From: Candidatus Parcubacteria bacterium
Lineage (GTDB): Bacteria; Patescibacteriota; Saccharimonadia; UBA4664; JBIOIQ01
Assembly (NCBI GenBank): GCA_963718875.1
Contig: OY970378.1
Coordinates: forward strand, 388,631-452,630
Length of the DNA: 64,000 nt
Direction: 5' to 3'
Shown here: piece after piece, positions 12,895-13,658 of the stretch
How positions within the stretch are numbered: position 1 is the stretch's first letter
Layout of the letters: the number at the start of each line of letters is the position of its first letter
Program-made: the position numbers and the translations under genes
The notes under the pieces: model-generated
Told to the model about the DNA's origin: nothing
Seen by the model: the letters and a program-made list of their open reading frames with translations, nothing else
The model's database searches: none

Positions 12895-13039
12895 AAAGCA
12901 ATATTAGCATACTAGTATAATGCTTTGCAAGTAATTATAATATATTGTAAAGCTTGACAATAATATCTTGGCGTGCTAACTTACTTTTACAACTAAATAT
13001 TGATCTAAATGCGTTTGAGTTGGGAAAATGGTCCCAACG

Positions 13040-13640
13040 AGCAGACTTGTGAACCATCCACTAGTGGAAAGTAGCAAGCTCCGGAAGAAGTCCGTTATTA
13101 TACTTCAACCGATGTCACCTTAATAGGCAGAGTCGGGTAGAGGCAGTCTGAGTAATCGAGCTGCAAAGCAAGGTGGCACCACCTATAGAAGGTCCTTGCA
13201 AGTGTTTCAAAGTAATTTTTTACTTTGGGATGTTTGCAAGGATTTTTTGTTTGAATCCGGTGTACGAGCGCAAGCTTGTACTCCGGCACAGCCAAAACCT
13301 ATGAGGAGGTGAAGCTCATGAACATCGATTTCGGTTGGTAGCCCCATGCCCTTAGGGGGCTTAGTGGTGGGGCGGGTCTTCGGATCCGCCCCACCTTCCC
13401 ACAGAAGGAGAGTGAGTATAAATGGTGGTTGTTGTGACTATTAGCGATGGCACTCAAGTGAGAGTTGAGGACGAAAACGTCTGTGGTTTTGTTCGGCCAC
13501 GGCTTTCAAGGCCTAGCGATACATTGCCTCCAAAGGTCGATCTAGCATCAGTCGAGGACCCCTGTCATTTTTCGTACTGGTGTTGTAGTTAGGCTGTGCG
13601 GGAAGACGGGCGTAAAAGCTCGTCTTCCCAAGTTCAATAA
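13040..13640 (+). ncRNA. candidate structured noncoding RNA region (class undetermined; RNase P RNA-like fragments seen but not confirmed)
   Basis: A 760-bp gap with no credible ORF. Strong GC hairpins at 13366-13395 (GGTGGGGCGG-UUCG loop-CCGCCCCACC) and 13600-13629 (GGGAAGACG...CGTCTTCCC). Motifs GGAAAGT, AAGTCCG and ATAGGCAG, and a potential pairing of AAGTCCG with ACGGCTT, recall the RNase P CR-I/P4 region. The strand is inferred from hairpin and motif orientation only. Confidence 0.25.
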
Positions 13641-13658
13641 AGTTAATAGGGAGTAACC

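Follow-up and report, generated by a model that had tools for sequence, protein, structure and literature searches.

The subject of this report is the DNA in front of a trpS operon in a 64,000-nucleotide stretch of contig OY970378.1 (GenBank assembly GCA_963718875.1), a stretch we refer to throughout as the window. The interval 12895-13658 is, on our best reading, the 5′ regulatory leader of an operon comprising a small open reading frame (ORF), an AstE-like gene and trpS, and at 13005-13252 it contains what is very probably a pared-down tryptophan T-box riboswitch. An initial annotation, made from the letters alone, had proposed RNase P RNA or another housekeeping RNA at this place, or a leader-peptide attenuator, or both. 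Its broader idea, a structured RNA that attenuates the trpS operon according to tryptophan supply, has lasted; the attenuator, however, would be a tRNA-sensing T-box upstream of the leader peptide and not the peptide itself. The strongest features of the region, the T-box sequence AAGGUGGCACCACC and a 22-bp terminator with its U-run at 13194-13248, had been overlooked.

The probable T-box element and its relatives

In a permissive search of 12700-13800, the Rfam T-box model RF00230 matched 13005-13200 across the full model at 41.3 bits, which is below the 93-bit threshold of the family; the E value was 1.7e-7 for the region and 1e-5 for the 64-kb window with both strands counted. The T-box was on the list of families that the initial annotation wanted compared with Rfam, and it is the one that answered. 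At gathering thresholds, the only Rfam matches in the window are rRNAs and tRNAs. The parts of the element are listed below, with the source of each assignment and predicted folding free energies (dG) where we have them.

13011-13042, forward strand: Stem I, consisting of a K-turn (GCG-UUU-GA / GA-GC), a 6-bp helix and an 8-nt terminal loop AAAAUGGU (Rfam alignment)
13046-13078, forward strand: Stem II with an S-turn (GAA / AGUA) and a variable distal hairpin (Rfam alignment, three-way alignment)
13082-13106, forward strand: Stem IIA/B pseudoknot with the F-box CCGUUA (alignment)
13109-13136, forward strand: extra hairpin separating Stem IIA/B from Stem III; the Rfam consensus lacks about 30 nt here
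13143-13164, forward strand: Stem III, 9 bp with a GNRA loop (GUAA) (alignment)
13168-13199, forward strand: antiterminator with the T-box sequence AAGGUGGCACCACC and a 7-nt bulge UGGCACC at 13174-13180 (Rfam alignment; dG -9.1 kcal/mol)
13194-13248, forward strand: intrinsic terminator, a 22-bp hairpin at 13194-13241 and then the U-run AUUUUUUG (terminator scan; dG -24.5 kcal/mol)

The K-turn at the base of Stem I aligns to the K-turn columns of RF00230, and the specifier UGG (Trp), at 13029-13031, sits within the terminal loop of the same stem. Six nucleotides here replace 72 positions of the Rfam consensus. Everything above the specifier is gone, including the double T-loop platform that binds the tRNA elbow (IDTM). 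At the other end of the element, the terminator was found by a scan that is independent of the Rfam match. The 5′ arm of the terminator and the 3′ strand of the antiterminator (AAGG-UGGCACC-ACCU...AGGU-CCUU at 13171-13198) overlap, having CCUUG in common, and the terminator is much the more stable of the two structures (-24.5 vs -9.1 kcal/mol). The interval 13000-13255 folds much better than shuffled sequence (z = -5.9); for 13245-13665 the value is z = -6.5.

Strong folding and a handful of short strings resembling conserved regions of RNase P RNA were what had suggested a housekeeping RNA, be it RNase P RNA, tmRNA, SRP or 6S. The strings are certainly present (GGAAAGT at 13066, AAGTCCG at 13088, ATAGGCAG at 13123 and ACGGCTT at 13499), but as marks of RNase P they do not stand, for three of the four map onto T-box elements: GGAAAGT belongs to the Stem II S-turn, AAGTCCG to Stem IIA/B next to the F-box, and ATAGGCAG to the extra hairpin before Stem III. 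In RNase P RNA the conserved region has GGAAAGU and AAGUCCG as one contiguous stretch; in the window they are 22 nt apart. On the forward strand of the window GGAAAGT occurs seven times and ACGGCTT, the proposed long-range partner, nine times. In 12700-13800 no RNase P, tmRNA, SRP or 6S model matched at E<=10, and in the whole window none did at E<=0.05; ARAGORN found no tmRNA. On the evidence of these tools we give a housekeeping RNA next to no chance.

Homologous loci were found through the AstE-like and TrpS homologues of the window. Those we lean on are L083, whose AstE-like protein is 53% identical to the window's, L093, whose TrpS is 71% identical, and L085 (AstE-like protein 65% identical), which covers the 3′ part of the leader region only. 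L083 and L093 each carry a homologous T-box leader upstream of a trpS operon, at 262 and 175 bits with our own covariance model and, with RF00230, at 43.6 and 26.3 bits, likewise below the Rfam threshold. Over 273 aligned columns, DNA identity between the leaders of the window and L083 reaches 86%, far above expectation from the 53% identity of the adjacent AstE-like proteins. Invariant in all three leaders are the UGG, the UGGC of the bulge, the K-turn, the S-turn, the F-box and the terminator with its U-run. Stem I is identical in L083 and L093 save one loop base, and the antiterminator shows a single change across the three genomes, from A-U to G-U.

The initial annotation had also called for a covariation analysis with homologous regions, and here the three leaders were informative: five pairs are changed on both sides among the window, L083 and L093, with 95.8% of pair cells paired in the three-way alignment. 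Slid controls gave 0-1 such pairs, and the corresponding figure for shuffles was 2 of 500. Where the leaders differ, the changes lie in loops or are compensatory. In the distal hairpin of Stem II the three sequences are unrelated, yet all of them pair (CCAC-UA-GUGG; UACUC-AUGU-GAGUG; CCCGC-CGCGA-GCGGG). IIB shows a compensatory change, GAAGU/ACUUC in the window and GAAGC/GCUUC in L083; three pairs of Stem III are altered on both sides among the three genomes, whose loops there are GUAA, GAAA and GCAA; and the pairing of the extra hairpin at 13109-13136 is largely retained in L083 and L093. Coming from three sequences, the covariation lends support without being conclusive.

Genomes labelled Saccharimonadales or Saccharimonadia supply the closest TrpS sequences (59-71% identical), and the host is, to judge from them, a Saccharimonadia-like bacterium of the candidate phyla radiation (CPR). 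(Within the genome collection the best TrpS match, at 62% identity, is to L001, contig DATIHE010000064.1, whose bin carries the label 'Candidatus Nanoarchaeia archaeon'; as this TrpS groups with Saccharimonadia sequences, the label of the contig or bin is probably wrong.) Beyond the window, L083 and L093, our covariance models R1 and R2 found no T-box of the window type in the remaining related loci. Among 80 related trpS loci from GTDB genomes (closest TrpS 62% identical), none of the 16 CPR loci had a T-box at the gathering threshold. A metagenome scan with the AstE-like protein gave two loci, both without a window-type leader, and pattern scans of viral contigs gave no match or one chance match within a coding region. 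In the nearest relatives without the element, L091 and L092 (TrpS 69% and 65% identical), trpS follows directly after RmuC with no leader, which makes the leader module look as though it had been inserted within one subclade.

Proposed specificity and mode of action

UGG fits as the specifier because all three leaders precede trpS. The loop can also be read as AUG (Met, then a purine), a candidate we rejected since it fits neither trpS nor the UGGC bulge. From these parts we would picture the switch as follows. Transcription would start probably near 12990, and the first 245 nt or so of the RNA (13005-13252) would be the tRNA-Trp-specific T-box. UGG would pair with the anticodon of tRNA-Trp, aided by the K-turn, the Stem II S-turn and the IIA/B pseudoknot, and the free 3′ end of an uncharged tRNA would pair with the UGGC of the T-box bulge. 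The tRNA would thereby stabilize a weak antiterminator (-9 kcal/mol) against a strong terminator (-24.5 kcal/mol and a U-run), and RNA polymerase would read through only when tRNA-Trp is poorly charged.

Does such an element act on transcription at all? Published T-boxes with an ultrashort Stem I are all described as translational (bioRxiv 10.1101/2023.02.28.530422; PMC7583486), and by analogy the hairpin at 13194-13241 might be a sequestrator that hides a Shine–Dalgarno (SD) sequence. Three observations speak against this. In each of the three genomes AUUUUUUGUUU comes after the hairpin; the next conserved SD lies about 60 nt downstream; and the 3′ arm has neither a conserved SD nor a conserved AUG, the only AUG it contains (GGGAUG in the window) being absent from L093 (GGAGCG). 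We consider a translational mode extremely improbable and favor transcription attenuation over SD sequestration, because a terminator and U-run are present and the 3′ arm lacks a conserved SD or AUG.

The ultrashort-Stem-I ('US', class II) ileS T-boxes of Actinobacteria, reportedly the subject of Sherwood et al. 2015 and of structures from Mycobacterium, are the nearest analogue by shape. By the published descriptions, the window element resembles them in its short Stem I hairpin, whose terminal loop holds the specifier, in the missing elbow platform, and in having kept Stem II, the IIA/B pseudoknot and the K-turn. By the same descriptions it differs in nearly everything to do with use: they are translational, answer to tRNA-Ile, regulate ileS and are actinobacterial, whereas the window element has a terminator, a Trp specifier and trpS as its target, in a different phylum. 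According to a 2023 preprint, all ultrashort T-boxes regulate ileS and respond to tRNA-Ile (bioRxiv 10.1101/2023.02.28.530422), and intermediate and ultrashort forms of Stem I are a feature of translational, mostly actinobacterial T-boxes (PMC7583486). The TBDB database, for its part, confined the search for its translational class to Actinobacteria and to class I hits whose Stem I is truncated (PMC7778990).

Canonical RF00230 leaders, represented among our loci by those of Bacilli trpS in L079, L053 and L077, make the other natural comparison. With these the window element shares the K-turn at the base of Stem I, the UGG specifier, the Stem II S-turn, the IIA/B pseudoknot and F-box, Stem III, the T-box sequence in a 7-nt antiterminator bulge, the competing terminator with its U-run, and an aminoacyl-tRNA synthetase gene as target. 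Unlike them, it has nothing in Stem I above the specifier, which lies in the terminal loop and is followed by U rather than A; it has an extra hairpin before Stem III; and its host is Saccharimonadia-like. The Rfam scores reflect the distance, 41 bits as opposed to 102-131 for the three canonical leaders. Transcriptional T-boxes generally need a long Stem I whose platform grips the elbow of the tRNA (PMC7583486), and by lacking the distal platform the window element is unlike every transcriptional T-box described in the literature consulted. The glyQS T-boxes are another natural reduction of the architecture that is still terminator-based, but theirs goes the opposite way: glyQS leaders drop Stem II and IIA/B and keep the long Stem I with its platform (PMC7583486). 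Full-text searches of the literature, incomplete in coverage, gave no paper linking T-boxes with CPR, Patescibacteria or Saccharibacteria. The window element therefore combines an ultrashort Stem I with a terminator, a Trp specifier and a host group new for T-boxes, an architecture not described for transcriptional T-boxes.

Several points weigh against a transcriptional tryptophan T-box and keep our confidence short of certainty. The RF00230 score of 41.3 bits is less than half the curated gathering threshold of 93 bits. A conserved purine follows the specifier in T-boxes (PMC7583486), and the canonical Trp T-boxes in L079, L053 and L077 read UGG-A; in the window, L083 and L093 the base 3′ of UGG is U. 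The match between the UGGC bulge and the discriminator base is a weak argument, because canonical Trp T-boxes among the related loci have either UGGC or UGGU in the bulge and neither the window nor the related loci contain a tRNA-Trp gene for comparison. Many pairs never vary, there being only three closely related examples. Finally, the elbow-binding platform is held to be needed for transcriptional T-boxes to work, and disabling it compromises function (PMC7583486); since that review calls the platform necessary, a terminator-type T-box without one may be weak or may need a compensating factor.

The module beyond the terminator

The T-box is followed at 13257-13629 by a conserved module; the same series of parts comes after the terminator in L093.

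13257-13299, forward strand: hairpin P1 (13257-13286, GCAA loop), then the conserved single-stranded motif CACAGCCAAAACC (folding, RNAalifold)
13303-13341, forward strand: SD GAGGAGGTG (13303-13311), then a 7-codon ORF, MNIDFGW-stop (13318-13341), with its ATG 6 nt after the SD and Trp as last sense codon
13340-13361, forward strand: hairpin A, small, beginning inside the stop codon of the mini-ORF (folding)
13366-13395, forward strand: hairpin B, GGTGGGGCGGGTC-TTCG-GATCCGCCCCACC, long and perfect with a UUCG loop (dG -28.2 kcal/mol)
13404-13592, forward strand: SD GAAGGAGAG and a 56-aa ORF (13422-13592) for a small protein, with homologues at the same position in L093 and L085
13600-13629, forward strand: hairpin C, GGGAAGACGGGC...GCTCGTCTTCCC, 12 bp and GC-rich (dG -22.9 kcal/mol), 29 nt before the start codon of the AstE-like gene

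Hairpins B and C had been placed correctly in the initial annotation. The mini-ORF had been recognized too, with the right distance to GAGGAGGTG, though at 13316-13339 it was set two nucleotides too early. The description of the region as ORF-free applies to long ORFs and overlooks the conserved 56-aa ORF, which has an SD of its own.

Across the window, L093 and L083, six of the 12 pairs of P1 show compensatory changes (RNAalifold), and P1, of 12-13 bp, differs in sequence between the window and L093; the motif ACARCCAAAASC that follows is common to all three. In L083 about 140 extra nucleotides (2060-2195) separate the T-box terminator from P1. This insert holds a second terminator-like hairpin (ACAAAAUCGCUCGG...CCGAGCGAUUUUGU and UUG) whose tail repeats ATTTTGTTTGAA of the first terminator; the insert has no Rfam match at E<=0.1. 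Hairpins A and B have counterparts of unrelated sequence at matching places in L093, B growing from 13 bp in the window to 16 bp there (dG -32). L085 keeps the 3′ arm of hairpin B along with the small ORF and hairpin C, and L093, L085 and L083 each have a hairpin of differing sequence just before the next gene, where the window has hairpin C. The sequence of hairpin B is unique within the window. P1, A, B and C all lack a U-run behind them. They seem best read as conserved structural elements that may serve the stability, processing or spacing of the mRNA.

The mini-ORF is MTINFKW-stop in L093, behind the same SD (GGAGGAGGTGAAG). Codons 1, 3, 5 and 7 and the stop are identical, 18 of 24 nucleotides match, and the common pattern is M-x-I-x-F-x-W-stop; just past it the sequence is randomized between the two genomes, only the hairpins being retained. 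A strong SD, a Trp codon at the end, conservation in L093 and hairpins directly behind are what one would want of a classical ribosome-mediated attenuator of the trpL kind, with this mini-ORF and the hairpins after it as the main switch. We nonetheless regard that as very unlikely. The mini-ORF lies downstream of a complete T-box terminator, no terminator comes after it (hairpins A, B and C being without U-runs), it has a single Trp codon and not a run, no alternative pairing common to the window and L093 was found, and in L083 a full-length gene occupies its position.

A different, additional role is suggested by the conservation in L093 of a mini-ORF ending in Trp: in the RNA read through from the T-box, it may serve as a second, translational sensor of tryptophan. 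The model would be the anti-TRAP operon of Bacillus subtilis, whose leader peptide RtpLP acts by direct blocking of an SD. The leader of that operon (rtpA/at) has a Trp T-box, RtpLP and the small protein AT, and complete translation of RtpLP, which contains Trp codons, prevents translation of rtpA (PMC2311275). It was the order of parts that led us to propose a second read-out, for the window has the same order of Trp T-box, short Trp-codon ORF, gene for a protein of about 55 aa and further gene (PMC2311275). The likeness has its limits: the window mini-ORF has one Trp codon compared with three in RtpLP, and no TRAP is known in the window's host. The mini-ORF would on this model add a translation-level read-out of Trp-tRNA supply to the transcriptional one.

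There is a good deal to set against this second read-out. The mini-ORF is known in two sequences only. Between its stop codon and the next SD lie 62 nt and two hairpins, and direct SD blocking of the RtpLP type consequently does not apply as such. When the mini-ORF was forced single-stranded, as if occupied by a ribosome, the predicted accessibility of the next SD was unchanged in both the window and L093 (the window fold used mini-ORF coordinates shifted by 2 nt, a difference that should be immaterial). What begins at this point in L083, after the same P1 and motif and with the same SD and ATG context, is a 221-aa gene, so the mini-ORF could be a deletion scar. On balance we regard a second, translation-level read-out by analogy with RtpLP as a tentative possibility, one we would sooner bet against than for.

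The small ORF stands on firmer ground. Its family has four members: those of the window, L093 and L085, and the gene-called P0143, which is 59 aa long and aligned over its full length in an exhaustive HMMER search (E 3e-6). Two other HMMER matches, to 14 and 5 short stretches in long proteins, were left out of the family, and a word-indexed protein search with the alignment gave no match. P0143 equals in size the 59-aa gene called beside the AstE-like gene on the syntenic contig of P0002; the gene calls for a contig identical to the window's have no gene in the gap containing the 56-aa ORF. Eight residues are invariant in the first 27 codons, and for six of them the synonymous codons differ; most of the remaining substitutions are conservative, so by its pattern of conservation the ORF behaves as a coding sequence. 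What the protein might do is harder to guess. It has no match in Pfam or NCBIfam, and its family profile has none in PDB sequences at E<=10, searches that should cover anti-TRAP if it is represented there; structure prediction from the single sequence gives an N-terminal beta-hairpin only, at pLDDT 50.

Everything from 13250 to 13658 might instead be the non-regulatory, decaying scar of a lost GNAT-like gene of the kind present in L083, L084 and L088, with hairpins and ORFs arisen by chance. The 221-aa ORF of L083, opened by the same P1, motif, SD and ATG, lends this some credence, as does the frequency of GNAT-like and AstE-like gene pairs in relatives; the small protein, with no known family and a low-confidence model, would fit as well. 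Yet tblastn found no significant match to the 221-aa protein, and hence no remnant of it, in any frame of the window. Window and L093 come from distant organisms (TrpS 71% identical), and they have kept the SD, the frame and stop of the mini-ORF, the positions of the hairpins and the small ORF amid otherwise scrambled sequence. The small ORF varies at synonymous sites of conserved residues and has a gene-called homologue. We judge a scar to be rather unlikely and prefer a functional module. Read-through RNA would then carry, in order, P1 as a stabilizing or organizing element, the 7-codon ORF, hairpins A and B, the 56-aa gene, hairpin C and the enzyme genes.

The operon, its neighbors and what the leader may mean

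The genes and signals around the leader are these:

12619-12894, reverse strand: TrpR-like (Trp_repressor / YerC-YecD-related) gene, divergent, bordering the leader (Pfam PF01371, E 5e-13)
12909-12918, no strand assigned: palindrome ATACTAGTAT (ACTAGT core), candidate TrpR-type operator, 15 nt upstream of the TrpR-like start
12955-12983, forward strand: candidate leader promoter TTGACA-N17-TAACTT, read from the sequence
13659-14381, forward strand: AstE/AspA-like deacylase gene (Pfam PF24827)
14404-15423, forward strand: trpS (Pfam PF00579)

That the region precedes an AstE-family gene and trpS had been noted from the start, and both Pfam assignments bear it out. In L093 the window-type leader leads straight into trpS; trpS comes only after one or two extra genes in the window and in L083. 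The TrpS frames of the window (14404-14436) and L093 (700-775) begin upstream of the usual MKRV.SGIKPTG N-terminus, and both have N-[ST]-C-Y-T-[NK]-[ND] just ahead of an internal Met. This may be either a conserved N-terminal extension or a conserved 5′ untranslated region with a miscalled start.

The putative promoter has a counterpart, TTGACA-N17-TATAGT, at an equal distance from the T-box of L083. A consensus promoter scan did not list the window's candidate because its -10 is weak. On the other side of the intergenic space, the TrpR-like gene scores 47 bits with the NCBIfam TrpR model, under that model's cut-off, and a TrpR-like neighbor also occurs on the syntenic contig of P0002 (AstE-like protein 70% identical). 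The palindrome ATACTAGTAT resembles the trp operator of Escherichia coli. Of the four TACTAGTA sites in the window only the one at 12909-12918 is intergenic, the others lying within long ORFs, and in L084 (about 1888-1897) an ACTAGT adjoins the putative -10 of the TrpR-like gene. The palindrome could be an autoregulatory operator, or one shared by divergent promoters.

Related genomes show a recurring cluster (L083 2258-4721, L084 1912-3726, L088 2330-3723 and 5171-6723, and L081/L082) composed of a TrpR-like regulator, an acetyltransferase-like protein of about 200-220 aa with a weak or no Pfam match, an AstE/AspA-like deacylase and, in some, trpS. In the window the mini-ORF and small ORF stand in place of the acetyltransferase-like gene. 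By its composition the cluster suggests an acylation/deacylation pathway tied to tryptophan. Adjoining the TrpR-like gene of the window, at 12159-12616 on the reverse strand, a short ORF of 76 aa overlaps another of 89 aa. The 89-aa frame weakly resembles the N-terminal portion of an aminoacyl-tRNA editing (YbaK-like) domain, and the pair looks like a frameshifted or split editing-domain gene. Much farther along, the rRNA genes (46777-61519) have an unusual arrangement, with 16S and 23S about 9.4 kb apart, and tRNA-Ile and tRNA-Ala between them on the opposite strand (51701-51938). The 16S carries an insertion of about 83 nt near its 5′ end and the 23S large insertions near model positions 280-320, and just downstream of the 16S are two perfect hairpins, 48554-48588 and 48629-48656 (16-nt and 13-nt arms), which are among the few strong hairpins that the window has outside the leader.

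A natural, terminator-type, Trp-specific ultrashort T-box would offer a direct test of the rule that transcriptional T-boxes need the long Stem I platform for quick capture of tRNA, and it would be a very compact transcriptional tRNA sensor for engineering. Standard annotation pipelines will miss this class, because all three examples fall far below the Rfam cut-off. The most elaborate reading of the locus is a three-tier tryptophan cascade packed into 760 nt: a TrpR-type operator for free tryptophan, a platform-less co-transcriptional T-box, and a Trp-stop 7-codon ORF gating a 56-aa regulator analogous to anti-TRAP. We think this improbable as a whole; if it were true, elbow contact would be dispensable for transcriptional T-boxes. 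A CPR bacterium is presumably unable to make tryptophan for itself. The leader suggests that even such reduced-genome, host-dependent bacteria still monitor the charging of tRNA-Trp, and that they may do so in layers, with a TrpR-like operator, a T-box, a mini-ORF ending in Trp and a new small protein.

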